A DNA stretch of 64,000 nt from Candidatus Omnitrophota bacterium (GTDB taxonomy: Bacteria; Omnitrophota; Gorgyraeia; Zapsychrales; Fredricksoniimonadaceae), in assembly GCA_903860135.1 (NCBI GenBank), contig CAIOPG010000006.1:100275-164274 (forward strand), read 5' to 3'. A program made the position numbers and the translations under genes. This document shows positions 40,941 through 55,899 of this stretch, in pieces. Below the pieces are notes generated by a model. The model searched no databases. It was not told the DNA's origin and saw nothing but the letters and a program-made list of their open reading frames with translations. Positions within the stretch are counted from its first letter, which is position 1, and each line of letters opens with the position of its first letter.

Positions 40941-40966
40941 TTGTGCGTGTTGCTTGAAAATATCAG

Positions 40967-41111
40967 TGTGATCTTTTACCGGTTCTTAAGGCTTGCGGAT
41001 GCCTTGCTGCTCAGACAGCAGAAACAGCTTTTTCTTGAAATACTTTAAGGAAAGCTTGGTTTCTGAACTCGCGACGGCGGCACTCTTCAGCCTTAAACCG
41101 GTAAAAGCTAG
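40967..41111 (+). repeat. copy 2 of the ~146-nt structured intergenic element, upstream of ahbA
   Basis: Same architecture as copy 1. Its outer stem is cttttaccggttcttaaggcttg / cagccttaaaccggtaaaag, with compensatory changes (aag→agg in the 5' arm paired with ctt→cct in the 3' arm) relative to copy 1. Confidence 0.8.
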
Positions 41112-41130
41112 TCGGAAATATGGTTATTAT

Positions 41131-41583
41131 ATGTTGACTATAAAAGATAAGAAATTTCTCAGGAAGCTTCAGACGGATTTCCCGTTGGTGTCCCGGCCTT
41201 TTGCTGTGTTGGCGGCAGAGCAGGGAGTTACCGAGGCGGAGCTGTTGGCTTATTTCAAGGATTTGCGTCAACAAGGTGTCCTGCGTTATATCGCGGTGAT
41301 GTTTGAATTGAAGGCGCTGGGTATTATTTCAAGTTTGATCGGTATGCGCGTCCCTGCGGACAAACTTGATGCGACGGTGGCTATCATCAATGCGTATCCG
41401 AATGTAAGCCATAATTATCTGCGCGAAGGTGAGTACAATGTCTGGTTCACTGTCAGTGCGGCGTCGGAACGCCGTCTTAAATCGATCCTGGCAGATATCC
41501 GCAAGAAGAGCGGTATTAAAGCTATGCTGGACCTAAGGACGCGGCGGGTTTTTAAGAATCAGGCTGTCTTTGAATTGAAATGA
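41131..41583 (+). CDS. siroheme decarboxylase subunit (AhbA/AhbB; NirD/NirL-like Lrp/AsnC fold)
   Basis: About 150 aa, similar to NirDLGH-type subunits. The start is placed after the repeat element; the listed ORF 40993.. reads through the repeat. Confidence 0.7.
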   Translation: MLTIKDKKFLRKLQTDFPLVSRPFAVLAAEQGVTEAELLAYFKDLRQQGVLRYIAVMFELKALGIISSLIGMRVPADKLDATVAIINAYPNVSHNYLREGEYNVWFTVSAASERRLKSILADIRKKSGIKAMLDLRTRRVFKNQAVFELK

Positions 41584-41584
41584 T

Positions 41585-42055
41585 ATGAAAATATCCAAAG
41601 AAATCATCTTTGCCCTTGCGGCGCCATTAAAACTGGTTAAACAACCGTATGCCGCCATCGCCAAAGAATTGGGCATCGACGAAGCGACCCTTTTAACCAA
41701 GATCAGGCAATGCAAGGCTGCGGGCGTTATTCGCCGTGTGGGTGTTGTTCTGGGGCATTTCAAGGCCGGATACACGAGCAATGCGCTGGTCAGCTGGAAT
41801 GTCGCCGAAGCTGATCTTGAGGCTCAGGGCAAACTACTGGCCACGTTTCCTCAAGTTACTCACTGCTATGTGCGTCAGACGTATCCGCAGTGGCCGTACA
41901 GCCTTTATACCATGGTGCACGCGCGGCATGCTAAAGAGCTGGCGGCGACGATCAAGGCCATGGCGCAGCAGTCGGGGATTAAGGATTACACGATCAGGAC
42001 AACGCTCAAGGAATTCAAAAAGATCAAAAGTGATCTGAAAGGGATACTCGCATGA
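41585..42055 (+). CDS. siroheme decarboxylase subunit (AhbA/AhbB paralogue)
   Basis: Paralogous to the preceding gene (...LGIDEATLLTKIRQ...AGVIRRVG...). Confidence 0.7.
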   Translation: MKISKEIIFALAAPLKLVKQPYAAIAKELGIDEATLLTKIRQCKAAGVIRRVGVVLGHFKAGYTSNALVSWNVAEADLEAQGKLLATFPQVTHCYVRQTYPQWPYSLYTMVHARHAKELAATIKAMAQQSGIKDYTIRTTLKEFKKIKSDLKGILA

Positions 42056-43314
42056 AATTTGATCGATCCAGGAAACTTTTTACGGAGGCCTGCCGTTATT
42101 TTCCTGGCGGCGTTAATAGCCCGGTGCGTGCCTTTGGTGCGGTGGGCGGGAGCCCTCTTTTTATCAAGAAAGGCGCCGGGTCGAAGATCACCGATGTTGA
42201 CGGGAATACGTACATTGATTATGTGATGAGCTGGGGGGCGTTGATCCTCGGGCATGCGGTTCCGGAAGTTGTAGCGGCTGTCAGTAAGGCGGCGGCTTTA
42301 GGGTCAAGTTTCGGCGCGCCGACTGAGTCCGAATCGAAGCTGGCAACGGTTATTTCACACGCAATACCGTCGATGGAGCGCCTGCGTTTGGTTAGTTCGG
42401 GGACGGAAGCCACGATGAGCGCGATCCGTCTAAGCCGCGGGTTCACGGGGCGCGACAAGATCATCAAATTTGATGGCTGTTATCACGGGCATGGCGACAG
42501 CTTGCTCGTCAAGGCTGGTTCGGGGGCGGCCACGCAGGGCATCCCCGGGAGCGCGGGGGTGACAGCGGCCCTCAGCCGGGATACGCTGGTATGCCCTTAC
42601 AATGATATAAGTGCGTTGCGTAAGATTGTCGCCCAGCATGCGGCGTCGATCGCCTGTGTGATCATCGAGCCGGTGGCGGCGAATATGGGCGTTGTGATGC
42701 CCGATGCGGCTTTTCTTCAGGCAGTGCGCGACCTTACGGCCAGGCATGGCATTGTCCTGATCTATGATGAGGTCATCACAGGCTTCCGTTTTCATTTTGG
42801 CGGGGTGCAGACCCTGCAGAAGATCAAGCCTGACCTGACCTGCCTCGGCAAGATCATCGGCGGGGGGCTTCCGATCGCCGCTTACGGCGGGAAGAAAGAG
42901 ATCATGGATTGCGTGGCACCTTTAGGCCAGGTGTATCAGGCCGGGACGCTGTCGGGCAATCCCGTTGCTGTGGCGGCGGGACTGGCGATGCTGAAAGTGC
43001 TCAAGACCAAAGATTATGCCGCGCTCGATCACAAGGCCGCGCGCCTGTGTGAAGGGTTGAAAGAAAGTTTCACACGCAAGCATATGCCAGTCACGATCAA
43101 TCGCGCCGGGTCATTGTTCACTGTTTTCTTTACACCTCAGCCCGTCACAGATTTTACGACGGCAAGAACGTCTGATACGAAGAAATATGCGGCGTATTTC
43201 AAGGCCATGCTTCATGCGGGCATCAATTTGCCGCCGTCGCAGTTCGAGGCGCAGTTCCTTTCTTTTAGCCACACGGATAAAGATGTGGCCTTGACGCTCA
43301 GGGCGGTAAAATAA
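42052..43314 (+). CDS. hemL: glutamate-1-semialdehyde 2,1-aminomutase
   Basis: ...YFPGGVNSPVRAF... and the PLP Lys region. Confidence 0.9.
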   Translation: MKFDRSRKLFTEACRYFPGGVNSPVRAFGAVGGSPLFIKKGAGSKITDVDGNTYIDYVMSWGALILGHAVPEVVAAVSKAAALGSSFGAPTESESKLATVISHAIPSMERLRLVSSGTEATMSAIRLSRGFTGRDKIIKFDGCYHGHGDSLLVKAGSGAATQGIPGSAGVTAALSRDTLVCPYNDISALRKIVAQHAASIACVIIEPVAANMGVVMPDAAFLQAVRDLTARHGIVLIYDEVITGFRFHFGGVQTLQKIKPDLTCLGKIIGGGLPIAAYGGKKEIMDCVAPLGQVYQAGTLSGNPVAVAAGLAMLKVLKTKDYAALDHKAARLCEGLKESFTRKHMPVTINRAGSLFTVFFTPQPVTDFTTARTSDTKKYAAYFKAMLHAGINLPPSQFEAQFLSFSHTDKDVALTLRAVK

Positions 43315-44796
43315 ATGGGCAAAGATCAACTGAAAGCGTCGCAGGTGCGACCTTTTTTCGTGTGTCTTTTATTTGCCATTTGCTTTCTTTTGCGGCTCTA
43401 TCAGCTGGGTTATCATGACCTCTGGTTTGACGAGGTCGCTTCGGCAGGTTATGCCCAGCACCCGTGGGGTAACTGGAATGCGCCATTTTATTGGATATTC
43501 TTGCATGGGTGGGTGAAATTCTTCGGATTTTCTGAATTTGTTTTACGGTTTCCTTCTCTCATTTTCAGTCTTTCTTCCGTTGTTTTTTTATTCTTTCTTG
43601 GTAAAGAGTTGTTCAACGCGCGGGTTGGTTTTTGTGCGGCTTTGTTCATGGGTTTGTCGCCTTTTCATTTATGGTATGCGCAAGAGGCCAGGGATTACAC
43701 TATGGTCTTGTGCCTAGGCGTCTGCGCTTCCTTATTGTTGGCCAAGGCATTGAAGCAGGACCGTAGTATATTCTGGATATCTTTCGCGCTAGTTTCCATG
43801 ATCGGGCTGTATACAAATTATTTCTATGCTGTTCTGCTGATGGCACAGGGCGGTGTGGTCTTGGCTTTTAAAAGGCATCAGATAAAGTTCTTGGAAGTGC
43901 TTTCTTTCCTGATTCCAGTGCTGGCCTTTTCTTATTACCTGCCACATTTCTTTGAGAAGTTCATTTATATTGCGCATGGGTTTTGGGTTCCCCGGCCATC
44001 GCCTGCATCGTTACTAATAACGTTGGAGAATTTTTTGCTGGGATATAATGGCTGGCCGGCATTATATTTGGTAGCGGACATCGTTATAGGCATCTTGTTC
44101 GTTGCAGCCTGCTGGAATGCTTATCGGCAGAAGTTGTACCAGAATTTTCTGGTATGCCTGGTCTTATTTTTGATCCCTATTGGTTGCATTTTTATCTTTT
44201 CCATAAACTTTTTCTCCATTTACCTGGATCGCGCGTTTCTGATCTTCACGCCTTTCTTTTATCTTGTTTTATCTGTAGGCCTGGGTTATGCCTCGCGCTG
44301 GTTCAGGTTCTTGGCGGTGGCTGTTCTGGCGGGATTGATGTTAACGTCGGTCGCGGCATTCTTTAAGAATCATATGGTGATGCCTTTTGAACATCATGTG
44401 GGGGTCTGGCTCAAGAAACCGATTAAGCCTGTAGGGGTTTTTCTGAAGGCGCATCTGGCGTCGGATGATGCCTTGGCGTTTACAAATAATTCTATTCTAC
44501 GATCTTTGTATTTCTACCATCATCAAGGTCTACCTTTATATTATTATTTATTTGATCCAAGGTTCCCCGAGACCGACTGGCAGCGGCCGATCCAGGAAAG
44601 TCCTCGTTGCATTCCGTATTACAAGGCAAGCGGGTTGAAATTCAATAAATTATGGGTGGTTTTCTCGGACTGGCCGCGGGACAAAACCCTTGGCCCAAGT
44701 TCGCAATCGACCAAGGACTGGCTGGACAAGAATATGGTTCAGGAATTTTCCAGGGAATTTGATGGACTGATGGTGGTACGCTATGCGCGCCCATAA
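43315..44796 (+). CDS. GT-C glycosyltransferase (GT39/ArnT/PMT-like polytopic membrane protein)
   Basis: About 11 TMs, with the DE motif in the first loop (HDLWFDEVASA) typical of GT39/GT83. Confidence 0.7.
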   Translation: MGKDQLKASQVRPFFVCLLFAICFLLRLYQLGYHDLWFDEVASAGYAQHPWGNWNAPFYWIFLHGWVKFFGFSEFVLRFPSLIFSLSSVVFLFFLGKELFNARVGFCAALFMGLSPFHLWYAQEARDYTMVLCLGVCASLLLAKALKQDRSIFWISFALVSMIGLYTNYFYAVLLMAQGGVVLAFKRHQIKFLEVLSFLIPVLAFSYYLPHFFEKFIYIAHGFWVPRPSPASLLITLENFLLGYNGWPALYLVADIVIGILFVAACWNAYRQKLYQNFLVCLVLFLIPIGCIFIFSINFFSIYLDRAFLIFTPFFYLVLSVGLGYASRWFRFLAVAVLAGLMLTSVAAFFKNHMVMPFEHHVGVWLKKPIKPVGVFLKAHLASDDALAFTNNSILRSLYFYHHQGLPLYYYLFDPRFPETDWQRPIQESPRCIPYYKASGLKFNKLWVVFSDWPRDKTLGPSSQSTKDWLDKNMVQEFSREFDGLMVVRYARP

Positions 44797-46009
44797 CGCT
44801 AGCGATCATCGCACCCCGGCCACGCGGCTGTTGTGCGCGATAATTGGCGAAGTTGTGACCCAAAAGAAGGACGAGCGTATGCCCGCCCTGATCGGGGCAT
44901 CGACGATCGATTGGGATGTTTTTAAGCGCGGTCTTGGGTATCATGGCCTAGGGCCGTTGGCGTACATGAGCTTGAAAGCGTATGCGGACACGTTGCCGCC
45001 TGATATCGTCGGTACGTTAAAGGCAACATATTATGCTTCCTTAAAACAGGTCGTGGCTTTTGAGGAGCATTTCTTTATTTTGGAAGCGGCATGTGCTCAA
45101 CAAGGACTGTTGATGGTACCGTTCAAGGGCATGGCCATCGTTGAGGATCTTTACGCGGAAAATCCTGTCCGGCCAAGTTGTGACATTGATGTTTTGGTGC
45201 ACCGGGAGGATATTGATCAGGTTATCACGGTCATGGAGGGGCTGGGATTTGAAAAAGAATTATCCGGGCTGAAAGAGTCTTACTGGAGGACACAGTATCA
45301 TATTGCTCTTCGGAAGAATGTCCATGGCCGGCGGCCGTTAGTGGTCGAGGTGCATTGGGATATTGATTATCCGCGCAAAGGGCGGCCTTTATTACCGGAG
45401 AAGTTTAACCGGTTAAGGGAGATCGCCGTCGGCGGGCGAAAGGTCAAGATTCTTTCGGTGGAAGATACGTTCTTTGGCTTAGCTTTGCACCAGCGGCGGT
45501 TTGGTCAGGTCCTCAACCTTAAGGATGTATGTGACATGGGCCGGTTGCTGAAGAAATACGCGGCTACTTTTGACTGGGATTATATTATTCGGGAGAGCAG
45601 GAGTTCTAGGTTGCGCGCCACGGTTTATTTCGCGCTTTTTCAGGTGAAATTCTTCTTTGACATTCATGTTCCTGAGCAGGTGATGGCGGTTTTGGCTGTG
45701 CCATCTTTCCAGAAAAAGATGATCGAGCGTTTTATAAGAAGGAATACCTTTTGGGATGATCCGGATTATAATTTAAAAGACCGTTTTCTAAAGGTGCATT
45801 TTTTGTTATATGATGACATTTGGGAGCCGGCAGTTTATATTCTGGTGATCCCTATTGAACAGTTTGCCAAGTTCTATGAACTCGATCCATATACTAGGAA
45901 GACAAGGTGGCTGTATCACTTCAGTTTCTTTTATGTGATATTCCGCCGAGTTCTGGTGTATTGGAGAAGATTATGGAAATGGTTTGACCGGAGGTGTCAT
46001 GAAGAATAA
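44783..46009 (+). CDS. nucleotidyltransferase-family protein of the type found in RiPP clusters (PF14907-like), putative
   Basis: The hG[S/G]-type region ...MVPFKGMAIVEDLY...CDIDVLVH resembles a minimal nucleotidyltransferase (GS...D.D). The true start is probably the internal MPALIG (~44879). Confidence 0.45.
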   Translation: MRAHNASDHRTPATRLLCAIIGEVVTQKKDERMPALIGASTIDWDVFKRGLGYHGLGPLAYMSLKAYADTLPPDIVGTLKATYYASLKQVVAFEEHFFILEAACAQQGLLMVPFKGMAIVEDLYAENPVRPSCDIDVLVHREDIDQVITVMEGLGFEKELSGLKESYWRTQYHIALRKNVHGRRPLVVEVHWDIDYPRKGRPLLPEKFNRLREIAVGGRKVKILSVEDTFFGLALHQRRFGQVLNLKDVCDMGRLLKKYAATFDWDYIIRESRSSRLRATVYFALFQVKFFFDIHVPEQVMAVLAVPSFQKKMIERFIRRNTFWDDPDYNLKDRFLKVHFLLYDDIWEPAVYILVIPIEQFAKFYELDPYTRKTRWLYHFSFFYVIFRRVLVYWRRLWKWFDRRCHEE

Positions 46010-47126
46010 TTTTTCGATCAATCAGCCTTTAGCGGCATTCTCGTTATGGCAGAAGTTTAAGGCGGAAAGAAGGTTGTATGCATTTGATCTGGAGATCACG
46101 GCCCGGTGCAATAACAACTGCCGTCACTGTTATGTGAATTATCCGGCGGATTGTAACGAGATCCGACAGAAGGAGCTCTCTCTAGATCAGATCAAGCACC
46201 TCGTTGACCAAGCGGTTGATATGGGTGCGTTGTGGTGCCTGATCACAGGCGGAGAGCCACTGTTGCGCCCGGACTTCTTTGATATTTATTTTTACATCAA
46301 AAGCAAAGGACTTTTGGTTTCGGTCTTTACTAACGCGACCATGATCACAGAGGAGCATGTGGCCTTCTTCAAGAAATATCCGCCACGCGAAATTGAGGTG
46401 ACGGTTTATGGCGTGACCTGCGCGACCTATGAGGATGTCAGCCGGGTCAAGGGCTCGTTTAGCCGGTTTATGCGTGGGGTGGATCTGTTGATGACAGGTG
46501 GCGTCAAGGTGCGTTTCAAAGCCATGGCCTTGCGTTCTAATGTTGATGGAATGCAGGCGATTGCTACTTTCTGCCGTGAAAGGACCCGCGATTATTTCCG
46601 GTTCGACCCATCCCTGCATCTGCGTTGTGATGGGGATATTCAACGGAATGAAGAGATCCGTTCCGAGCGATTGTCGCCCGCCGAGTTTGTGGCCCTTGAA
46701 AAAGCGGATGCGGAACGTTTCGGAGCACTCGAGAAGAACTGCGATAAACTCATTGTGCCTGCGCTGGAGCATCTTGCCTGCCATCATCTTTTCCATTGCG
46801 GGTCAGGCAATGGGAGTTTTTATGTCAGTTATGACGGCTTTTTCCGCTTGTGTTCGTCTTTGTGCCAGAAAGATTGTGTTTATGACTTAAAGAAAGGTTC
46901 GCTGAAAGAAGCCTGGGAGTGCTTTGTGCCACAAGTGCGCGCGATGACATCCGACAACAAGGAGTTCCTGGAAAAGTGCCGCGTGTGCCCGATCATCAAT
47001 CTCTGTCTCTGGTGCCCAGCGCACGCGCATCTTGAGACCGGTCGGCTCGACCAGCCAGTCCAATTTTTTTGCGATATAGCGCATGCACGGCAAGCTTCGC
47101 TTGAGGCGAATAATAAAGTTAGTTAA
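45984..47126 (+). CDS. radical-SAM/SPASM peptide-modifying enzyme (paralogue 1)
   Basis: CNNNCRHCY cluster, and a C-terminal SPASM-like Cys cluster (CGSGNGS...CRVCPIINLCLWCPAHA). Confidence 0.8.
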   Translation: MTGGVMKNNFSINQPLAAFSLWQKFKAERRLYAFDLEITARCNNNCRHCYVNYPADCNEIRQKELSLDQIKHLVDQAVDMGALWCLITGGEPLLRPDFFDIYFYIKSKGLLVSVFTNATMITEEHVAFFKKYPPREIEVTVYGVTCATYEDVSRVKGSFSRFMRGVDLLMTGGVKVRFKAMALRSNVDGMQAIATFCRERTRDYFRFDPSLHLRCDGDIQRNEEIRSERLSPAEFVALEKADAERFGALEKNCDKLIVPALEHLACHHLFHCGSGNGSFYVSYDGFFRLCSSLCQKDCVYDLKKGSLKEAWECFVPQVRAMTSDNKEFLEKCRVCPIINLCLWCPAHAHLETGRLDQPVQFFCDIAHARQASLEANNKVS

Positions 47127-47157
47127 ATGGGCGTCATAAATCTACGGAGGGTTCATA

Positions 47158-47342
47158 TGACTGAGAAAATGGATAAGAAATGGACTACGCCGCAGTTGAT
47201 TCAGTTGGTTAGAGGTGGCGAGGAGGAGGGTGTGTTGGGGGTGTGCAAATACTATATGACTGGTGGTCCGATTTATAGAGATTGTGTAACATATGAGGCC
47301 GATATGTCTGCTTATACTTGTTTTGCATATTCACCGTCGTAA
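47158..47342 (+). CDS. candidate RiPP precursor peptide (61 aa; 71 aa if started at 47127)
   Basis: RBS GGAGGG lies 5 nt upstream of the ATG at 47158. The sequence is MTEKMDKKWTTPQLIQLVRGGEEEGVLGVCKYYMTGGPIYRDCVTYEADMSAYTCFAYSPS, with 3 Cys, 6 aromatic residues, a GG motif and a C-terminal Ser. It lies between the rSAM gene and the ABC exporter and is followed by an AT-rich spacer. Confidence 0.4.
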
Positions 47343-47491
47343 GACATGCGAATTAATAGTGTCAGTACTCCTCAAACTGATGAAGTAAAACAAGTTAAAT
47401 TGTAATTTGTTCAATACGGTCACTGATAATATTGACAGACAACTTGGAGTTGTTTGTAGCATTAGATTAACTAAACCAACTTAAGACAACG

Positions 47492-49270
47492 ATGAACCCT
47501 CCTTGGAATCTTTTAAAAGAATTCTATCATTTCCTTGTCCCTTATTACCGCAAACAGGGTGTCGCCTTGGTGCTGACACTTGCCGGTGTCCTGCTCAGCC
47601 TTGTCAATCCTTACTTGACTAAATTGATGGTGGATCGCGCGATCATGGGCAAAGACGTGAAGATGTTCTTGATCCTCGGTGGGATCGGTGCTGGGGTATT
47701 CCTGCTGAACAGTCTTGTCAACGCGGGGGCGGAATACATCACCAAGGATATCAGGATCAGGCTTGGCTTTGATCTTAACAGGAAAATATTCACGCACCTT
47801 CAGCGGCTCCCCTTGGGTTTCTTCAAGATCAGGTCTACTGGGGAACATATGTTCAAGGTCAACTATGATGTGGACCGGGTGGCGGATCTGTTGAGTTTTA
47901 TTCCCCGCGACGCGGTCAATATTTTCCCTAAATTCCTGTGTACGTTTGTGATCATTGCTTGGCTGGATGGGTCGATGGCACTTGTTGCCCTGCTGGTACT
48001 GCCATTGGTATTTTGGCCTGTCAACCGGATGACCCAACGGATGCAGGAGGTGTACCGCGCCATGGTTGACAGATCCCAGGACATTTTCAGGAAGATGGGA
48101 GAAATATTCTCGCACATATACTTGGCTAAGGTATTCGGGAAGGAGCGGGCACAGACACGCGGATACCTGCGCGCGGTGATCGCCCGTATGCGCTGGGAAT
48201 TCAGTAACATTCGCCTTGAGGTGCTTAATACGCTCATGGCCGGCAGCCTCAATCGCGCGATCATCGCTGTTCTTACTTTGTTCGGTGCCTGGCAGGTGAT
48301 GCAAGGCAAGGTGACGCTGGGGACATTGGCCGCGGTGCTGGTCTATCTGGCGGAACTGGTCTTGTTGCAGAGTAGTGTTGTGTTCCTTTTTCAGCGGGTG
48401 AGTATGGGGCTCATTTGTTGTGGCCGGCTGGACGCCTTGTTGAACCAACCGCCGCAAGAGCTTCACGCGGACGGGGCAAAAGTCAACATGAGCGATGCCG
48501 TGGATATTCGGTTTAAAAATGTGTCATTCGGGTATCGTCCCTCTGAGATCATCTTACGGGATACGGCGTTTGAAATACCCGGCGGCTGGGTGGCCCTGGC
48601 TGGCGCTTCGGGCTGCGGGAAGACGACCATCATCAATCTTCTGCTGGGGTTTTATCAGCCGTTCCAGGGGCAGATATTCGTCGGCGGCCATGATATGCGT
48701 GCCATCGACTTGGCTTTTTGGAGAAACCAGCTTGGCGTCGTGACACAAGAACCTTTCTTGTGGGATGACACGGTGGCGAATAATTTGAAATATGCCTGCC
48801 CGCACGCATCTGATGATGAGATGGCTCGCGTGGCTCAGATGACCGGGGTGAACAATATGATTCGGTCACTGCCCCACGGCTATAACACGCTCATTGGCGA
48901 GCGGGGGTGCCTGCTTTCCGAAGGGCAGAAGCAACGCATCGCTCTGGCCAGGGCCTTGCTCAAAAGGCCGAAGATCCTTATCCTGGACGAAGCCATGTCG
49001 TCCATCGATGCTTTAAGTGAAGAGCAGATCATCGCGGTTCTACGCGCGATCCCGGAGGTCACGCAGGTCTTGCTTGTATCGCATCGCTGGTCGACAGTGT
49101 CCAGTTGTGATCATGTGCTATATTTTAACGGTGACCGGCCGGTAATAACCGGTCAGCCTGCGGATCTTATGCAGCATAACGCGGCGTTTCGTGCCCTTTT
49201 CGCCCGTCAGATGAACAATGATCGGGAACATATTCATGCTATACCAGCACTGGAGAATGAACATGCCTGA
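47492..49270 (+). CDS. ABC exporter, fused permease + ATPase (no C39 peptidase domain)
   Basis: Six TMs, then Walker A (GASGCGKTT), the signature LSEGQKQRIALARA and Walker B (ILILDEA). Confidence 0.85.
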   Translation: MNPPWNLLKEFYHFLVPYYRKQGVALVLTLAGVLLSLVNPYLTKLMVDRAIMGKDVKMFLILGGIGAGVFLLNSLVNAGAEYITKDIRIRLGFDLNRKIFTHLQRLPLGFFKIRSTGEHMFKVNYDVDRVADLLSFIPRDAVNIFPKFLCTFVIIAWLDGSMALVALLVLPLVFWPVNRMTQRMQEVYRAMVDRSQDIFRKMGEIFSHIYLAKVFGKERAQTRGYLRAVIARMRWEFSNIRLEVLNTLMAGSLNRAIIAVLTLFGAWQVMQGKVTLGTLAAVLVYLAELVLLQSSVVFLFQRVSMGLICCGRLDALLNQPPQELHADGAKVNMSDAVDIRFKNVSFGYRPSEIILRDTAFEIPGGWVALAGASGCGKTTIINLLLGFYQPFQGQIFVGGHDMRAIDLAFWRNQLGVVTQEPFLWDDTVANNLKYACPHASDDEMARVAQMTGVNNMIRSLPHGYNTLIGERGCLLSEGQKQRIALARALLKRPKILILDEAMSSIDALSEEQIIAVLRAIPEVTQVLLVSHRWSTVSSCDHVLYFNGDRPVITGQPADLMQHNAAFRALFARQMNNDREHIHAIPALENEHA

Positions 49271-50264
49271 GGTTTATTTACCATCTCGAAAAGTTTCTGA
49301 TTTACCGCAGATACCGCTCGATGGTCGCATGGAATTCATGGAAAATTGCGGTTCGTGTGCGTCGCATAGAGAACACTGCCGATTTTATCAGATCGCCGGT
49401 CTATCGATCCGGGTGGAATCTGACTTGCCGATGTCCGACCAGACCTTTCATTTGAAATTTAAGCATTTTGAGATCAAAGTCCCTAAGGCTGACATGATCA
49501 CGATCAGGCATCATTTTAGTTTGCCGAACCTTGATGGGAAAGACCTTGGCCGTGAGGTTTATCGTAAGGTACCGTGGGCTATTTACAGAAAGGGAAATTC
49601 CTGGATATATCTTGGTATTGCACCGACGGAAGGAGACAATTCTCTGCACCGGGTTGTTCGCTGTAATGATGATCATACGCAGGTGACGATCTATAATGAT
49701 AAAATGACAGAGGATGAATTTCTGAAAGGTGAACAACATTCATTGACCTTTTTTCCGACGGACCAGATTCTGATAGCGCGTGTCCTGGCTGACAGGAATG
49801 CTTTTTACCTGCATTCCTGCGGTGTCAGGTTCCACGGTCAGGGTCTTCTTTTTGCCGGGCACTCCGAGGCTGGCAAGTCCACCACGGCCACTATGTTAAA
49901 AGACCGGGCTGACATCCTTTGTGATGACCGGATGATCATTCGGGGAACCGGCACGGACCAGGGATTCGATATCCATGGGACATGGAGCCATGGGGATGTG
50001 CCGGATGTGTCGGCGGGATCCGCGCCACTACGGGCGATCATGTTTCTGGAAAAATCCGATGCTAACAGGCTTATCCGTCTCCATGACAAGAAGGAAATCA
50101 TACGCAGGATGCTCGAATGCCTCATCAGGCCTTTTGTGACCGCGGATTGGTGGCATAAAACCCTGTCGGTCGTGGAAAGGGTCGTTGATAATGTACCCTG
50201 TTATGTGCTCAAATTCGACCGGAGCGGCAAAGTGGTAGACCTGTTGCAGAAGGAGTTGCAATGA
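49263..50264 (+). CDS. HPr-kinase C-terminal-domain-like P-loop protein (HprK-related kinase), putative peptide kinase
   Basis: P-loop LLFAGHSEAGKSTTATML followed by ...DDRMIIR.. resembles the HprK/P C-terminal kinase fold. The start was chosen at the ATG at 49263 (an 8-nt overlap with the ABC stop). Confidence 0.55.
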   Translation: MPEVYLPSRKVSDLPQIPLDGRMEFMENCGSCASHREHCRFYQIAGLSIRVESDLPMSDQTFHLKFKHFEIKVPKADMITIRHHFSLPNLDGKDLGREVYRKVPWAIYRKGNSWIYLGIAPTEGDNSLHRVVRCNDDHTQVTIYNDKMTEDEFLKGEQHSLTFFPTDQILIARVLADRNAFYLHSCGVRFHGQGLLFAGHSEAGKSTTATMLKDRADILCDDRMIIRGTGTDQGFDIHGTWSHGDVPDVSAGSAPLRAIMFLEKSDANRLIRLHDKKEIIRRMLECLIRPFVTADWWHKTLSVVERVVDNVPCYVLKFDRSGKVVDLLQKELQ

Positions 50265-51439
50265 CCGCTGAGGCTTATCTTGTTCGACGGAATGTTAACC
50301 AACCGTCTTCAGGAAAAATATCACCGCCGCGTCTTTTAGGACGATTGGATATGATCCTTACCGAGCGTTGCAATAATAATTGTGTTCATTGCTACATAAA
50401 TCTTCCATCCGGCGACCTAGATGCTAGGAAGAAAGAATTATCGACGGATGAAATAAAGAATATCCTCAAAGAAGCCGTAACGTTAGGGTGCATGATGGTG
50501 CGTTTCTCTGGTGGTGAGCCGCTGTTACGCGAGGATTTTGGGGAACTCTATCTTTTTGCCCGAAGGCAGGGGCTTAAGGTGGCGATCTTCACCAATGCCA
50601 CGTGCATCACGCCAGACCTTGCCGATCTCTTTGCGCGTATTCCACCCAAAGAAAAGATCGAGATCACGGTGTATGGGATGAAGCAAGAATCTTACGAGGC
50701 GGTGACGTGCGTGCCAGGCTCTTTTGCCAAAGCCTGGCGGGGGATTCATTTACTTCAGGAAAGAAAAGTTCCTTTTGTGGTCAAAGGGGCATTGTTGCCG
50801 GATAATAAGGATGATGTCGATGAATTTGAGGCCTGGGCCGCGACCATCCCATGGATGGAAAAACTGCCTGGGTATTCCATGTTCTTTGACCTGCGATGCC
50901 GCCGGGAGGAAGGTAAAAATCGCAGTATAATGGCGGTAAGAGCGACGCCGGAGAACGGGGTTAAATTCATGACGCGTAGAAAAGAAGAATTTCTAAAAGA
51001 CCAAAAGCAATTCTGCTCCCAATTCATGCGCCCTTCTGGCGACAAACTTTTTTCGTGTGGTTCGGGCAAAGGGGGTGGGTGCGTTGATGCGTATGGCGGG
51101 TTTCAGATGTGCATGATGCTCCTGCATCCTGATACGGTCTATGATCTTAAACAGGGCACGCTTCAAGATGCGCTTGAAAGATCTTTTCCGGCTTGCCGTA
51201 ACACGACGGCGGTGAATAAGGATTATCTGCAACGGTGTGCCCGGTGTTTTCTTAAAGGCTTGTGTGAACAGTGCCCGGCGAAGTCATGGGCCGAGCACGG
51301 CACCCTCGATACGCCCGTTGAATATTTCTGCCAGGTAGCACACGCCCAGGCGCGCTTCCTTGGATTGATCGGTGAAGGTGAGAAGGCATGGGAAGTAGTG
51401 GACGCGGAGCAAAGGATTGAGAAATTCGTTAATAGTTAA
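50261..51439 (+). CDS. radical-SAM/SPASM peptide-modifying enzyme (paralogue 2)
   Basis: CNNNCVHCY cluster, a C-terminal Cys cluster (CGSGKGGGC...CARCFLKGLCEQCPAKS), and clear paralogy to 45984..47126. Confidence 0.8.
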   Translation: MTAEAYLVRRNVNQPSSGKISPPRLLGRLDMILTERCNNNCVHCYINLPSGDLDARKKELSTDEIKNILKEAVTLGCMMVRFSGGEPLLREDFGELYLFARRQGLKVAIFTNATCITPDLADLFARIPPKEKIEITVYGMKQESYEAVTCVPGSFAKAWRGIHLLQERKVPFVVKGALLPDNKDDVDEFEAWAATIPWMEKLPGYSMFFDLRCRREEGKNRSIMAVRATPENGVKFMTRRKEEFLKDQKQFCSQFMRPSGDKLFSCGSGKGGGCVDAYGGFQMCMMLLHPDTVYDLKQGTLQDALERSFPACRNTTAVNKDYLQRCARCFLKGLCEQCPAKSWAEHGTLDTPVEYFCQVAHAQARFLGLIGEGEKAWEVVDAEQRIEKFVNS

Positions 51440-51448
51440 GGAGGTCGG

Positions 51449-51760
51449 ATGCAGAAACACGTTATATTAGAAAGTATTTACAAGCCTTCGGAAGATGTGG
51501 TGGCGCGGGATGTCCAAGGCGAATTTGTCATTATACCTATCACGAGCGGTATCGGTGACGGTCAGGATGACATTTTTACAATGAACGACACTGGTCGCGT
51601 TGTCTGGGATCACCTCGACGGCAAAAGGACGCTGAAAGAAATAGGGCTGGAACTTTCCGGAAACTACGACGCCGCACCCGGACAAGTCGAACAGGATGTT
51701 GCCGGTATTGTGCAGGAATTGTTGAATAAGAATATTGTAGTAGAAGTCCCTGCGGTTTGA
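51449..51760 (+). CDS. PqqD-family protein (stand-alone RiPP recognition element)
   Basis: About 100 aa; ...GEFVIIPI...FTMNDTGRVVWDHLDGKRTLKEIGLELS...DVAGIVQELLNKNIV matches the PqqD/RRE pattern. Confidence 0.65.
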   Translation: MQKHVILESIYKPSEDVVARDVQGEFVIIPITSGIGDGQDDIFTMNDTGRVVWDHLDGKRTLKEIGLELSGNYDAAPGQVEQDVAGIVQELLNKNIVVEVPAV

Positions 51761-51819
51761 TCGGATAGTGTCAAAAGTTTTATGAAGAATGTGCATAAAA
51801 AAGGATTTTGATATGAATT

Positions 51820-51852
51820 CCCCTCCCCGCTTCAGCGTGGGAGGGAGTTTTA
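51820..51852 (+). terminator. putative intrinsic terminator after pqqD-like gene
   Basis: GC-rich stem ccctccccgct / agcgtgggaggg with a 2-nt loop, followed by aGTTTTaa. Confidence 0.45.
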
Positions 51853-51929
51853 AGCTATTTAGATATAAGGGTTTTGCGAGTTGGAAGCTAGAACTTTTGA
51901 CAGAACACGCCTAAAAGCGAGGGTATCTT

Positions 51930-53027
51930 ATGCGTTGCTGTAACCGTCATTATCAGGATTTCTGCGGGCATATTTATAAATATGCCCCGGCCTGTGAGGC
52001 GATCAACAGCAAGGACGCGGTCAATGCGGCGTGTTCTTTAAGAAATCAAAGTGATACCGGTTTGGTTGTGCGATTTTTTGACTCTGGGCGAGAGATCGTC
52101 GACAAGAACAAGATGGTTTTCCATCCGCAGGGGATATGCATGTACCCGTGCATACGGCCCGGGGACAGGCTTCACATAGAATCGCGCTCGATAGAACAGG
52201 TCAAGATTGGGGATATTGCGGTGTATCGCCGGTTCAACCGGCTGTTTGCCCACCGTGTTATTGGCGCAGGCGAAAAGCTTGGTGCCCATTATATCATCAC
52301 CCGCCCTGATACGGCACCGCGCGGTGATGATGGTCCGACGTTCGATGAGGATATTCTGGGGGTTGTGGTGCGCCTTGAACGCAAGGGAAAGATACTGGGT
52401 ATTGTTCGCAAAACATACCCGCTGTTGCATAGAATACTCCTCGATATTCACGTTCTTCCGTATCGTTTGGCCGGTCAGCTTTGGGCTTGGCTTTCTTTTC
52501 ATTTAAGCCTTATTCAACAGTATTCATTCTACCGGGTCTTCGCGCAATACTTGTTTATGAACAAGAAGGTTGAATTTTCTCTGCAGGTCCCGATCAATGC
52601 CAGGCCGGACAGCCGGCTTTTTCAGAAACTTTCCCGTGAAGGATTGCTCGACCGGTTGAGCGCTGAAGAACCTGTTGCCAAATGGTCCCTGCACGTGGCA
52701 GTGAAGGCGAGATCTGTTGGGTATGTGTCATTCGTCCGTAAGCCAGAGTCCTGCCTTCACCGTGGCTGGTGGGTGTATGAAGCGCATATTGATCCTTTAT
52801 ATCGAGGGACAGCGGTTGAAACGAGATTGCTCCAGGAAGTTGTTCTTATCCTCGGTCGTGCCGGGATCAAAGCAGTTTCTGTCACCGCCTTCGGGGATGC
52901 GATAAAGGATCGGCTGTTTTTCAAGAATATGGGATTTAACGAAGTTTCTTCGTATCGAGATGTTTTGTTAAAAGGTCAATGCTACGGGGCTGTGGAACGG
53001 GTGATCATGAAAATGTATATTTGTTGA
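51930..53027 (+). CDS. S26/S24-like peptidase domain (apparent Cys/His variant) fused to a GNAT-like acetyltransferase domain, putative
   Basis: Signal-peptidase-like boxes: GICMYPCIRPGD (box B, with Cys at the Ser position), IGDIAVYRR (box C), LFAHRVIGAGE (box D, with His at the Lys position). The C-terminal ...YRGTAVETRLLQEVVLILGRAGIKAVSV...FFKNMGF resembles GNAT motif A. Confidence 0.4.
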   Translation: MRCCNRHYQDFCGHIYKYAPACEAINSKDAVNAACSLRNQSDTGLVVRFFDSGREIVDKNKMVFHPQGICMYPCIRPGDRLHIESRSIEQVKIGDIAVYRRFNRLFAHRVIGAGEKLGAHYIITRPDTAPRGDDGPTFDEDILGVVVRLERKGKILGIVRKTYPLLHRILLDIHVLPYRLAGQLWAWLSFHLSLIQQYSFYRVFAQYLFMNKKVEFSLQVPINARPDSRLFQKLSREGLLDRLSAEEPVAKWSLHVAVKARSVGYVSFVRKPESCLHRGWWVYEAHIDPLYRGTAVETRLLQEVVLILGRAGIKAVSVTAFGDAIKDRLFFKNMGFNEVSSYRDVLLKGQCYGAVERVIMKMYIC

Positions 53028-53081
53028 AAAATCGGGACACACTACTTACTGGTTTTAATGCACAAACCGGGTTTATTTTGT

Positions 53082-53105
53082 AACTTTCAGCCTGCTGGCG
53101 CGTTT
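53082..53105 (+). promoter_or_regulatory. possible ECF-type autoregulatory promoter (AAC – 16 nt – CGTTT) upstream of the ECF sigma gene
   Basis: tAACtttcagcctgctggcgCGTTTa lies 20 nt upstream of the ATG at 53126; the spacing fits ECF -35/-10 geometry. Confidence 0.3.
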
Positions 53106-53125
53106 AAAGGGTAGGAGAGGGCGAT

Positions 53126-53704
53126 ATGGAAAGAACGGATGAAGAACTGATCCGCGCGTATGCCTCCGGCGAACCGGACGCTGTGGGGCTGTTGTTTGCG
53201 CGGCACAAGGGGAGCATTTTCAATTTTGCCTTGCGGCTTATTGGCAACAGGGCAGATGCCGAAGATGTGACCAGCGATGTCTTTCTTCAGCTCTTTAACA
53301 GGCGCTATCAGGCAACCCCGCAGGCCAAATTCACCACCTGGCTTTTTACGGTGGCGCGCAATGCCTGTCTGTCCAGGATAAGGACCCGCAATATGCTGGG
53401 GTCTTTCTGGTTCAAGCGGGACGGCGACGATGGTTTTGAGGAACAGGAGATAGCTGATCCTGCGGGCAATCAAGGTGAGGCTTTAAGGAATAAGGAAAAA
53501 GCCAAGATGGTGAAGCAGGCCGTTATGGCCTTACCTCCGATGCAGAAAGAAGCGTTGATCCTGCGTGAGTATTGCAACAAGGATTATGCCGAGATCGCGG
53601 CGATCCTGGGCTGTTCCTTTGATAATGTTAAAGTGCTTATATTCCGCGGCCGCGAGCGTTTGCGCGTAAGCCTGGCCGCCTGGATGAAGGAGGAAACCCT
53701 ATGA
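53126..53704 (+). CDS. ECF (group IV) sigma-70 factor
   Basis: Region 2 (...DVTSDVFLQLF...) and region 4 (...EALILREYCNKDYAEIAAILGCSFDNVKVLIFRGRERLR). Confidence 0.85.
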   Translation: MERTDEELIRAYASGEPDAVGLLFARHKGSIFNFALRLIGNRADAEDVTSDVFLQLFNRRYQATPQAKFTTWLFTVARNACLSRIRTRNMLGSFWFKRDGDDGFEEQEIADPAGNQGEALRNKEKAKMVKQAVMALPPMQKEALILREYCNKDYAEIAAILGCSFDNVKVLIFRGRERLRVSLAAWMKEETL

Positions 53705-55899
53705 ACGAGCAAGACAAGCTCCTCATATCCGCTTACGCCGACGGCGCGCTCTCTCCAGACGATGCCGCTCGTGCCGAAAGCCTCCTGGCCGGTGATCGTG
53801 CGTGCCGGGCCTACCTCGAGGACATCCGTAAGATTTCCATGTCGCTGTCGGTGGTGAAGGACGAACAGCTCTCTCCCGATGCTGAGATCCAGATCATCCA
53901 ACGCTTGCACAAGGAGACAACGTATATGAAACCCAATACATGGAAGACAGCAGCAACCGTGTGCGTGACCATTGTGGTCGCGTTTTTGGTAATGCAGAAT
54001 TATGCACACAGGACATTGCAGGGACGATTAAAGGATGCGAATGTACTGTTTCGTGACAGTATTGGATCAACGTTGAAGTATGAACCGTATTATACAAATA
54101 CAAGTGCCGCTTCGGATAAGTCTTCTGTAAAGCATGCGGAAGGGTATGTTGATTCGACTGTCTATTCAAGCGGTCTAATGCGCGATACTATGTCCCGTAA
54201 CGCAAAGTCTATTGGTACTGATGCTAAAGATGCTTATGGGGGTGTTGCGCCGGGGGTTGATACATCTGTCTATTTCGAAGCGCCTGTAGAAGGGGCTCTC
54301 ATCTTAAAATCTTCTTTCGCTGGTTTTGGAGGGGAGAATGATAAAGTAAGTAATGATATCGGCGATCAGTATTCTACCGCTACTTACGCTAATTATCAGA
54401 GGGGCGTCAGTGCGCTTGATCATCAACAATATACGCCTTCCTACACCGAAGAATACCCCTTCTTCAATGAGAATGAATTCTTGACCACCGACCAGAACCC
54501 GTTGTCCACATTCTCGACAGATGTTGACACGGCCTCTTACAGCAATCTGCGGCGTTATCTGACCCGGAATCAGGTGCCGCCACAGGATGCGGTGCGGCTC
54601 GAGGAGATGATCAATTACTTCTCTTATAATTATCCCAATCCCAAAAATGGGGAACCGTTCTCGATCACGACGGACCTGGCGGTGTGCCCATGGGCCCAGA
54701 AACATTTGCTGTTGCGCATTGGGCTAAAGGGGCGGGTGCCAGACGAAGAAACGCTGCCGGCGAGCAATCTGGTGTTTCTCATTGACGTGTCCGGCTCCAT
54801 GCAAGATGGCAACAAACTGCCCCTTCTTAAAGAAGGTTTCAAGATGATGGTGCGTCAATTGCGCCCTGAAGACCGGGTATCGATCGTTGTTTATGCGGGT
54901 TATGCCGGAAAGGTGCTCGACACCACGTCGGGGTATGACAAGGACGCGATCATTAATGCCATTGATAATCTGCAAGCCGGTGGTTCGACAGCCGGCAATG
55001 AAGGGATTCAGCTGGCGTATCGGACGGCCCGGGAAAGCTTTATCCGGGGCGGGAACAATCGCGTGATCCTGGCCACCGACGGGGATTTTAACGTGGGCTT
55101 GTCGGATATCGGTGCCTTGACGCGCATGATCGAGGATAAACGCCGCGAAGGTGTTTTTCTGACGATATTGGGCGTGGGCAACGGGAATTATAAGGATGAC
55201 CGTTTGCAGGCACTGGCAGATAAAGGCAACGGGAATTATTTCTACCTTGATTCTATCCGCGAAGCTCAGAAAGTCCTGGTCCATGAATTGGGGTCCACTT
55301 TATTCACGATCGCCAAGGACGTGAAGATCCAGGTGGAATTTAATCCGTCGCAGGTCAAGGCCTATCGCTTGCTGGGTTATGAGAAACGCATCATGGCCAA
55401 GCAGGATTTCAATAATGACGCCAAGGATGCCGGCGAGATCGGGGCCGGGCATACGGTCACCGCCTTGTATGAACTGGTGCCCCCCGGTGTTGATGATGTG
55501 CCTGTGAGTGTGGATGATCTCAAATATGCCCGCACCAGGCCGTCATTCGGTGCGGAAGTTTTGACAGTAAAATTGCGTTATAAGGAACCGGACGGGAATG
55601 TGAGCAAGCTTATTACCAAAGGTGTTGGCAAGTCCTGGTTGCAGCTGGAACCATCGGGCGATTTCGCCTGGTCTGCCGCCGTGGCCGAATTCGGGATGCT
55701 GATCAAGGCTTCTTCGAGCCGGGCCAGGGCGTCGTTCGATCATGTCCTTAAAGCCGCCAGGGCAGCCAAAGGAGATGACAGATCCGGCCAGCGCCAGGAG
55801 TTCATCGACATGGTTGAAACCGCCCGGGATATTGTCCCTGAAAGTAATGGGCGGATCAATTTCAAGAGTGAAAAGCGAGAAGAGCGCCGGGAGGATTAG
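53701..55899 (+). CDS. anti-sigma factor (N-terminal zinc-finger-like anti-sigma domain, one TM) with periplasmic VWA domain
   Basis: N-terminal ...LISAYADGALSPDD... anti-sigma motif, a TM (AATVCVTIVVAFLV), a VWA MIDAS motif (LVFLIDVSGSM), and a 4-nt overlap with the sigma gene. Confidence 0.7.
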   Translation: MNEQDKLLISAYADGALSPDDAARAESLLAGDRACRAYLEDIRKISMSLSVVKDEQLSPDAEIQIIQRLHKETTYMKPNTWKTAATVCVTIVVAFLVMQNYAHRTLQGRLKDANVLFRDSIGSTLKYEPYYTNTSAASDKSSVKHAEGYVDSTVYSSGLMRDTMSRNAKSIGTDAKDAYGGVAPGVDTSVYFEAPVEGALILKSSFAGFGGENDKVSNDIGDQYSTATYANYQRGVSALDHQQYTPSYTEEYPFFNENEFLTTDQNPLSTFSTDVDTASYSNLRRYLTRNQVPPQDAVRLEEMINYFSYNYPNPKNGEPFSITTDLAVCPWAQKHLLLRIGLKGRVPDEETLPASNLVFLIDVSGSMQDGNKLPLLKEGFKMMVRQLRPEDRVSIVVYAGYAGKVLDTTSGYDKDAIINAIDNLQAGGSTAGNEGIQLAYRTARESFIRGGNNRVILATDGDFNVGLSDIGALTRMIEDKRREGVFLTILGVGNGNYKDDRLQALADKGNGNYFYLDSIREAQKVLVHELGSTLFTIAKDVKIQVEFNPSQVKAYRLLGYEKRIMAKQDFNNDAKDAGEIGAGHTVTALYELVPPGVDDVPVSVDDLKYARTRPSFGAEVLTVKLRYKEPDGNVSKLITKGVGKSWLQLEPSGDFAWSAAVAEFGMLIKASSSRARASFDHVLKAARAAKGDDRSGQRQEFIDMVETARDIVPESNGRINFKSEKREERRED

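Follow-up and report, generated by a model that had tools for sequence, protein, structure and literature searches.

An HprK/PEPCK-fold ScmC-family protein as a putative precursor-peptide kinase in a radical SAM cassette of Omnitrophota

Phosphorylation is rare among peptide natural products (PMC12639078), and HprK-type peptide kinases have so far been linked to lasso peptides and, since 2026, to linear polyphosphorylated peptides (LPPs). Linear precursors of paeninodin-type clusters end in a strictly conserved Ser, which the HprK superfamily kinases PadeK, ThcoK, SyanK and PsmK (poly)phosphorylate (PMC9266682, PMC6993621). Lasso-tailoring kinases have a common His-Lys-Asp-Asp motif, all four residues of which are essential (reviewed in PMC9266682); PsmK bearing the D158A/D159A substitutions is inactive, and the NTP-transferase-like protein PsmN of the lasso system adds a hexose onto the phosphate (PMC6993621). 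LPPs, reported by Popov et al. (Nat Commun, May 2026) together with the proteins LppK, LppB, LppS, LppD and LppN, are linear; their authors consider LPPs and paeninodins to be restricted to Bacillota and make no mention of radical S-adenosylmethionine (rSAM) enzymes (PMC13381572). In this system LppK polyphosphorylates the core residue Ser3 in YxxPxVLxHQxIxFETxxS (PMC13381572). Here we analysed a 64,000-nucleotide stretch of contig CAIOPG010000006.1 from a Candidatus Omnitrophota bacterium (referred to as the window in the rest of the text), in which a gene coding for a ScmC-like P-loop protein lies within a gene cluster for a ribosomally synthesized, post-translationally modified peptide (RiPP).

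We propose, with a probability of roughly 0.55, that the ScmC-like protein is an ATP-dependent peptide kinase that is guided by a RiPP recognition element (RRE) and acts on a C-terminal Ser/Thr, within an rSAM RiPP cassette that also comprises an NTP_transf_5 protein, a protease and an exporter. A PqqD-type RRE would bind the WxxPxL leader of a 61-aa precursor, and the kinase, by means of H184, K205 and D221/D222, would add one phosphate, or possibly several, to the side-chain hydroxyl of the C-terminal Ser, in the manner of PadeK, ThcoK and PsmK with lasso precursors. Two rSAM/SPASM enzymes would act on one core Cys each, probably forming thioether-type crosslinks, while NTP_transf_5 may decorate the phosphate in a manner comparable to the addition of hexose by PsmN. 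A signal-peptidase-like protease would then cut off the leader, and an MsbA-like ABC pump would export the product. We infer the kinase activity, its target site, the order of the steps and the chemistry of every modification.

Family and fold of the ScmC-like protein

The open reading frame (ORF) coding for the ScmC-like protein is intact (333 codons) and is preceded by GGAG 7 nt 5′ of its ATG. It overlaps both of its neighbours: the end of the upstream ABC gene by 8 nt, and the beginning of the downstream rSAM gene by 4 nt (ATGA). Identical copies of the protein are recorded on other contigs, where the neighbouring genes are likewise the same. A profile search of 1.84 billion cluster representatives (50% identity) returned 361 matches at E≤1e-30, 4,616 at E≤1e-10 and 12,517 at E≤1e-3, and 913 homologs were found among 90%-identity clusters at E≤1e-3. 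This ORF is thus a real gene, with similarity to other proteins far beyond chance.

The original prediction had likened its Walker A sequence GHSEAGKSTT and the DDR segment that follows to the C-terminal domain of HPr kinase/phosphorylase (HprK/P), a resemblance supported by alignment, by family models and by the predicted fold. The segment GHSEAGKS occupies residues 199-206 and is followed, about 15 residues on, by DD at residues 221-222, the HprK/PEPCK-type combination of a Walker A motif with an Asp-Asp pair. The pattern GxSxxGK[ST] was found in 116 of the 120 homologs listed. In an alignment of 70 homologs, residues H184, G199, G204, K205, T207, D221, D222 and R223 were invariant, and the His-Lys-Asp-Asp tetrad of RiPP-tailoring kinases is therefore complete (H184, K205, D221 and D222). 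The N-terminal domain (residues ~32-165) was also strongly conserved in the 70-sequence alignment, and our guess is that it binds the peptide or a partner protein.

The same 70 ScmC-family sequences served as the input alignment for an AlphaFold2 (AF2) model, which had a mean predicted local distance difference test score (pLDDT) of 89, a predicted TM-score (pTM) of 0.84 and disorder in residues 1-31 only. When the model was compared with the PDB by Foldseek, 49 of the 50 matches listed were ATP-dependent phosphoenolpyruvate carboxykinase (ATP-PEPCK) or HprK/P, the remaining one being a chain of a respiratory supercomplex. The PEPCK matches extended over both domains (~370 columns; best E 2.5e-7, query-normalised TM-score 0.40-0.45), while the HprK/P matches 1ko7, 1kkl, 1jb1, 2qmh and 1knx covered the C-terminal domain (E 1e-5 to 7e-4). 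PEPCK and HprK/P have a common fold, and at the superfamily level the model has the HprK/PEPCK-like P-loop fold. The outcome that had been named beforehand as speaking against the prediction, a placement in an unrelated P-loop family such as AAA or ABC, did not occur, as no AAA or ABC protein was present among the 50 Foldseek matches listed. We rejected such families also at the level of sequence, where the matches were short or partial: ABCB1 matched at the P-loop only (E 0.025, with no passing stretch), as did AAA_29, RsgA and ABC_tran, all weakly and in part.

By profile, the best PDB match of the ScmC-like protein was HprK/P. Among NCBIfam models, all sub-threshold, the best was ScmC (TIGR04249; 1.8e-8, 34 bits for a cut-off of 125), followed by HprK-related kinase B (1.6e-5) and HPr(Ser) kinase (1e-3). 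The sole Pfam match in the Pfam copy scanned was Hpr_kinase_C (PF07475; E 0.0028, 17.6 bits for a cut-off of 33.3), and no PEPCK family was matched at the sequence level in the Pfam, NCBIfam or PDB searches. When the 70 family members were scanned singly, the only consistent curated families were ScmC (70/70), HprK_rel_B (69/70) and HPr(Ser) kinase (57/70); Hpr_kinase_C was matched by 51. For all 70 the best NCBIfam match was ScmC, in each case below the TIGR04249 cut-off (best E 6.5e-14). A precomputed Pfam assignment, PF27840 (PF27840.1, "ScmC"), includes the window protein and all 120 homologs listed. We rejected strict membership in TIGR04249-04251 on score, and likewise a bona fide HprK/P, since the scores fall under the thresholds of PF07475 and TIGR00679 (18.4 bits for a cut-off of 240) and the gene is translationally coupled within a RiPP operon of precursor, ABC, rSAM and PqqD genes rather than tied to HPr/Crh and carbon catabolite control. 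By its sequence, the window protein is a member of the broad ScmC family (PF27840), in a sister group to the TIGRFAM SynChlorMet cassette and not a member of the latter.

Precursor family, related loci and gene cluster

Besides the fold and the conserved motifs, the analysis shows an association of the genes, a precursor family with a conserved terminus and a correlation of one rSAM enzyme per cysteine. A genome scan seeded with ScmC yielded 79 loci, many of them incomplete, and a second set was retrieved from metagenomes seeded by the precursor motif PEEAVLxxCK only, giving a total of 159 related loci (L001-L159). Pooling the ScmC-seeded and the precursor-seeded loci provided 218 unique candidate precursors; each set alone gave the same picture.

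In the window, the precursor gene is preceded by GGAGG 7 nt upstream and codes for the 61-aa peptide MTEKMDKKWTTPQLIQLVRGGEEEGVLGVCKYYMTGGPIYRDCVTYEADMSAYTCFAYSPS, ending in TCFAYSPS immediately before the stop codon. A small-ORF motif scan revealed that this peptide belongs to a conserved family adjoining ScmC, in which the leader KKxWxxPxLxVLxRxxPEExVLxxCK precedes a hypervariable core containing two or three more Cys. The W and P of the WxxP leader motif were invariant in the 50 aligned precursors, and the same alignment revealed no conserved hydroxyl residue in the core other than the terminal one. The Ser terminus that had been pointed out for the window peptide proved to be a family trait, as 203 of the 218 candidates have Ser (180) or Thr (23) as their last residue, compared to 12.5% of the long ORFs from the ScmC-seeded loci and the window (nominal binomial p ~4e-162, with no correction for phylogeny, though the cores are hypervariable). 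The other 15 candidates comprise 11 that clearly lie outside the family and 4 that seem degenerate or frameshifted. Exactly Cys-x5-[Ser/Thr]-stop was found in 180/218 candidates, the window peptide included. The family tail has a hydrophobic residue at -4 and small residues at -3 and -2. The family thus offers both a conserved Ser/Thr as candidate target and, with the PqqD protein and the leader motif WTTPQL, the discrete RRE and [Y/W]xxP leader that accompany RiPP kinases. Action on a C-terminal Ser, which the original prediction had ascribed to paeninodin-type kinases, is borne out by the literature (PMC9266682, PMC6993621), and the tetrad of those kinases is invariant here; by analogy, the C-terminal Ser is most likely phosphorylated by the ScmC-like enzyme.

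Several loci carry multiple precursor genes (~10 in L008, 6 in L089 and 5 in L021). Five orphan precursors (L084, L088, L132, L140 and L153) keep the Cys-x5-Ser tail with no cassette gene within ~9 kb, and their cassette may sit elsewhere in the genome. In one precursor of L018, Phe replaces the otherwise conserved leader-proximal Cys of the C-K pair.

The RiPP context that had been proposed for the ScmC-like gene was found in the window, where two rSAM/SPASM enzymes, PqqD, an ABC exporter, NTP_transf_5 and an S26-like peptidase are clustered, and also in 78 of the 79 related loci. Hosts of the latter are Omnitrophota, Desulfobacterota, Aminicenantes, Acidobacteriota, Chlorobiaceae, Actinomycetota, Planctomycetota and NC10, as well as the archaeal Methanotrichaceae, Methanoregula and Methanomicrobiales. 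Loci L010, L015, L024, L025 and L074 carry the full cassette in methanogens; its presence in methanogens and in many bacterial phyla implies a wide horizontal spread. The closest of the 79 loci is L018, from an Omnitrophica metagenome-assembled genome (80% identity). In canonical order the genes are rSAM_a - ScmC - rSAM2 - PqqD - (S26-like) - rSAM1, with or without an ABC exporter and NTP_transf_5. Genes for rSAM enzymes were present in 78 of these loci, PqqD in 63, ABC in 25 and NTP_transf_5 in 22, and 44 of the 63 PqqD-containing loci had an ORF with the S26 motif (G-x-[S/C]-M-x-P...GD...HR) after PqqD. Some genomes contain two tandem ScmC cassettes: L018 (5609-6472 and 10001-10897), L002 and L037.

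The rSAM genes form three orthologue groups (rSAM1, rSAM2 and rSAM_a), and the number of rSAM/SPASM genes tracks the number of core Cys. Loci lacking rSAM_a had precursors with two Cys after C-K in 13 of 13 cases, while three or more Cys were present in 45 of 48 loci with rSAM_a (P = 8.5e-11, Fisher's exact test). The window, which has no rSAM_a and two core Cys, is an example of this recurrent two-rSAM subtype. ScmC, PqqD and the terminal Ser/Thr remain constant throughout. By parsimony, PqqD would account for the WxxPxL leader and the rSAM enzymes for the cysteines, which would pair ScmC with the terminal hydroxyl residue, since both are constant and the other constant or variable features are already matched to PqqD and the rSAM enzymes.

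The cluster genes are all on the + strand and closely packed (Table 1). The transmembrane region of the ABC exporter starts at residue 24, too close to the N-terminus for a peptidase domain to fit in front of it. The N-terminal half of the putative leader peptidase matched archaeal-type signal peptidase I (TIGR02228, 8.8e-9) and SEC11A in the PDB (E 0.08), both sub-threshold, while its C-terminal half gave a weak match to GNAT acetyltransferases. Cys70 lies at the position of the Ser nucleophile (G-I-C70-M-Y-P), with a His in AHRV at residues 107-110. The same fusion of a Cys-nucleophile signal-peptidase-like domain with a weak GNAT-like domain occurs in L002, L022, L029, L039, L046, L053 and L074, and a short Ser-bearing S26-like form of ~170-200 aa directly follows PqqD in 38 other loci. 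Family-model scans of the window cluster detected neither a lasso cyclase (C) nor a B2 protease, and a promoter and terminator scan of positions 43000-53300 revealed nothing exceeding shuffled expectation.

Table 1. Features of the cassette and of the ScmC-like protein, in window coordinates
Feature	Position	Strand	Basis
PMT_2 membrane glycosyltransferase; possible accessory, membership uncertain	43315..44796	+	Family match; otherwise only in L018
NTP_transf_5 "uncharacterised nucleotidyltransferase"; PsmN/LppN-kind partner by annotation	44783..46009	+	PF14907, 3.4e-41
Radical SAM/SPASM maturase, rSAM1 orthologue group	45984..47126	+	Family match, locus comparison
Precursor peptide gene, 61 aa	47157..47342	+	ORF, motif scan, alignment
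Leader motif WTTPQL (WxxPxL), RRE-binding motif type of lasso/LPP leaders	47181..47198	+	Alignment; PMC13381572
C-terminal tail CFAYSPS, case of Cys-x5-Ser/Thr-COOH; terminal Ser codon 47337-47339	47319..47339	+	Tail survey
MsbA-like ABC exporter	47492..49270	+	Family match
ScmC-family HprK/PEPCK-fold P-loop protein, putative precursor-peptide kinase	49263..50264	+	333 aa; ORF, family models, AF2, Foldseek
N-terminal beta-rich domain (residues 32-165)	49356..49757	+	AF2 secondary structure/pLDDT, PEPCK alignments, conserved columns
His184, aligned with His140 of L. casei HprK/P; invariant	49812..49814	+	Sequence alignments
Walker A/P-loop GHSEAGKSTT (residues from 199)	49857..49886	+	K205 aligned with HprK/P Lys161, S206 with Ser162
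DDR; D221/D222 equivalent to HprK/P Asp178/Asp179 by alignment and to PsmK D158/D159 (metal site) by motif; invariant	49923..49931	+	Alignment; PMC6993621
Radical SAM/SPASM maturase, rSAM2 orthologue group; always directly 3′ of ScmC	50261..51439	+	Family match, locus comparison
Discrete PqqD-family RRE	51449..51760	+	PF05402, 9e-14; weak matches to lasso PqqD and ScmD models
Archaeal/SEC11-type signal-peptidase-like domain with weak GNAT-like domain, 365 aa; putative leader peptidase	51930..53027	+	Sub-threshold matches

The PMT_2 gene overlaps the start of the NTP_transf_5 gene (translational coupling) and is common only to L018 (1-522); its product might lengthen a glycan linked through phosphate, or it may have nothing to do with the cluster. 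Its start abuts the stop of hemL (43314/43315), the last gene of an upstream alternative-heme (siroheme-dependent, Ahb) operon at 36255-43314 (+) that contains a cobA/hemD fusion and genes for a NirJ1/AhbC-like rSAM, hemB, a NirJ2/AhbD-like rSAM, AhbA, AhbB and hemL. We rejected a third cluster rSAM in the window, the ORFs at 37796-38983 and 39969-40940 being best matched by the NirJ1/AhbC and NirJ2/AhbD heme models, below cut-offs. Directly downstream, positions 53126-55899 (+) code for an extracytoplasmic function (ECF) sigma factor and an anti-sigma protein with a vWA domain, followed by nuo genes.

Weighing the kinase proposal

Several points weigh against phosphorylation of the terminal Ser/Thr by the ScmC-like protein. 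LppK phosphorylates the core residue Ser3, not the terminus, and it rejected Thr (PMC13381572), which makes up 11% of the termini here (23/218). Bona fide HprK/P is matched weakly (PDB sequences at E 0.02-0.2, with Pfam and TIGRFAM scores under their cut-offs), and no biochemical data on any ScmC-family protein were found in the literature searched. NTP_transf_5 was detected in just 22 of the 79 loci, although many of these are incomplete. Besides a phospho-site, a crosslink or a shared recognition element involving the last Cys would be consistent with the fixed Cys-x5-Ser/Thr spacing. Natural fusions of rSAM_a with a C-terminal ScmC (~650 aa; for example P0004, P0010, P0017, P0063, P0121, P0127 and P0149) account for ~18 of the best 150 cluster representatives, and their frequency hints at a role closer to rSAM chemistry than to late tailoring. 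The Cys-x5 spacing, the tolerance of Thr and the rSAM fusions are the observations least well explained by simple late tailoring.

The fixed spacing is at the heart of a first alternative, in which the terminal Ser/Thr would be the acceptor or recognition residue for an rSAM/SPASM crosslink from the last Cys, and the ScmC-like protein would phosphorylate a residue elsewhere or a partner protein, or would leave the peptide unphosphorylated. Sactipeptide and ranthipeptide rSAM/SPASM maturases do link the sulfur of Cys to defined acceptors a few positions away. The LppK target is an internal Ser (PMC13381572). We nonetheless consider this alternative unlikely, as the interchange of Ser and Thr indicates a hydroxyl that chemistry based on H-atom abstraction does not need, no further hydroxyl residue is conserved in the core, the count of rSAM enzymes equals that of core Cys without involving the terminus, and the documented target of the related lasso kinases is a C-terminal Ser (PMC9266682).

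Phosphorylation of the terminus could also be transient. The phosphate on the terminal Ser/Thr would then leave, and the resulting dehydroalanine or dehydrobutyrine would either enter a (methyl)lanthionine-type ring with the Cys six positions upstream (-7) or be hydrolysed to a C-terminal amide. Class III/IV lanthipeptide synthetases act by phosphorylation followed by elimination, and the cleavage of C-terminal dehydroalanine in thiopeptides gives amides. Such a course suits the exact Cys-x5-Ser/Thr-stop of the 180 candidates as well as the interchange of two hydroxyl residues, whose activation it would require, and the Cys accounting holds if the rSAM enzymes act on the C-K Cys and on the middle one. 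Against it, family-model scans recognised no lyase or cyclase homolog in the window cluster, the Phe at the C-K Cys position in L018 argues against that Cys as an obligatory rSAM substrate, and the NTP_transf_5 partners of lasso systems act on a retained phosphate (PMC6993621). We therefore regard elimination as decidedly unlikely.

Improbable, too, is a role as a nucleotide-binding structural or scaffold partner of the rSAM enzymes, which may depend on ATP to hold the precursor tail or hand it over, with no phosphotransfer to the peptide. The commonness of the rSAM/SPASM-ScmC fusions, the location of ScmC always between or beside rSAM genes and the strong conservation of its N-terminal domain are in keeping with such a role; however, the whole phosphotransfer tetrad is invariant, beyond the P-loop, and ScmC is retained in the window and in 13 loci devoid of the fusion-partner rSAM. 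Finally, a small-molecule kinase or carboxykinase-like enzyme making a phosphorylated donor or co-substrate for the pathway is very improbable: although the best full-length structural matches are ATP-PEPCK over both domains, that fold is common to PEPCK and HprK/P anyway, no PEPCK family is matched at the sequence level and all signal at that level leads to HprK-type protein or peptide kinases.

As far as computation reaches, the interpretation of the ScmC-like protein as an HprK-like peptide kinase acting on a Ser-ended non-lasso peptide is thus supported, and it offers a concrete testable function for ScmC/SynChlorMet-like cassettes. It would join a module of kinase, RRE, signal peptidase, exporter and NTP transferase to rSAM/SPASM enzymes in at least 361 clusters at 50% identity, thereby linking two RiPP worlds that are usually treated apart. 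Experiments can draw defined substrates and predictions from the precursor rule (WxxPxL leader, C-K, Cys-x5-Ser/Thr-stop) and from the correlation of one rSAM enzyme per cysteine. A bolder proposal, which we advance only tentatively and with the odds against it, is that of an undescribed RiPP class across uncultivated phyla and methanogens, in which the HprK-fold kinase and rSAM/SPASM enzymes act jointly on one tail, the kinase activating the C-terminal Ser/Thr and the Cys-x5 geometry amounting to new chemistry. If true, this could mean a kinase-initiated C-terminal lanthionine-like ring or amide, or a phospho-glycosylated terminus on a thioether-crosslinked scaffold, and the rSAM-ScmC fusions would be bifunctional maturases.

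Comparison with known systems

HprK/P resembles the window protein in the fold of its C-terminal domain, in its P-loop and in the equivalents of His140 and Asp178/179. Unlike HprK/P, the N-terminal domain of the window protein aligns with PEPCK in the full-length matches, and the gene belongs to a RiPP operon. The SynChlorMet cassette (TIGR04249 ScmC, TIGR04248 ScmD, TIGR04250 ScmE and TIGR04251 ScmF) has the same gene set as the window, namely an HprK-like protein, a PqqD homolog and two rSAM/SPASM enzymes, but the window proteins and the related ones, including those of the Chlorobiaceae locus, miss the cut-offs of TIGR04248-04251. We found no published function for ScmC-like or SynChlorMet families in the literature searched.

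Lasso-tailoring kinases are likewise HprK superfamily proteins with a P-loop and the His-Lys-Asp-Asp residues. Their genes neighbour one for a discrete PqqD-type RRE and, in many cases, genes for an NTP transferase and an ABC exporter. Their precursors have in common with the window family a WxxP leader and a strictly conserved C-terminal hydroxyl residue. PadeK, ThcoK, PsmK and LppK were compared with the window protein only via the published motif and their shared relation to HprK models. Unlike lasso clusters, the window has no C or B2 protein and has rSAM/SPASM partners, and its precursor family tolerates Thr (11%) and keeps a fixed Cys-x5 distance; unlike lasso kinases, the window protein scores highest with ScmC models and not with Hpr_kinase_C.

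The original prediction had seen in this locus an extension of such kinases beyond lasso peptides. That novelty has been partly pre-empted by the LPPs (PMC13381572), whereas the coupling to rSAM/SPASM enzymes and the spread beyond Bacillota are new: rSAM coupling, a Cys-x5-Ser/Thr tail and a multi-phylum and archaeal distribution were not found in the literature searched. Window-type loci differ from LPP loci in their two to three rSAM/SPASM enzymes, their Cys-rich cores, their conserved terminal Ser/Thr and their hosts beyond Bacillota, including archaea, and the window protease differs further in having Cys at the nucleophile position. The LPP leader motif [Y/W]xxPx[L/V] is common to the window leader, but the LPP leader/core consensus is replaced here by the longer leader pattern of the aligned precursors. 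Nevertheless, the LPP core set is complete in the window, with an HprK-like kinase, a discrete RRE, an archaeal-type signal-peptidase-like protease after the RRE (a sub-threshold call), an MsbA-like exporter and an NTP transferase. Because the LPP core module consists of the same five functions and LppK was shown to polyphosphorylate Ser (PMC13381572), this comparison supports the proposal that the ScmC-like protein is a peptide kinase.

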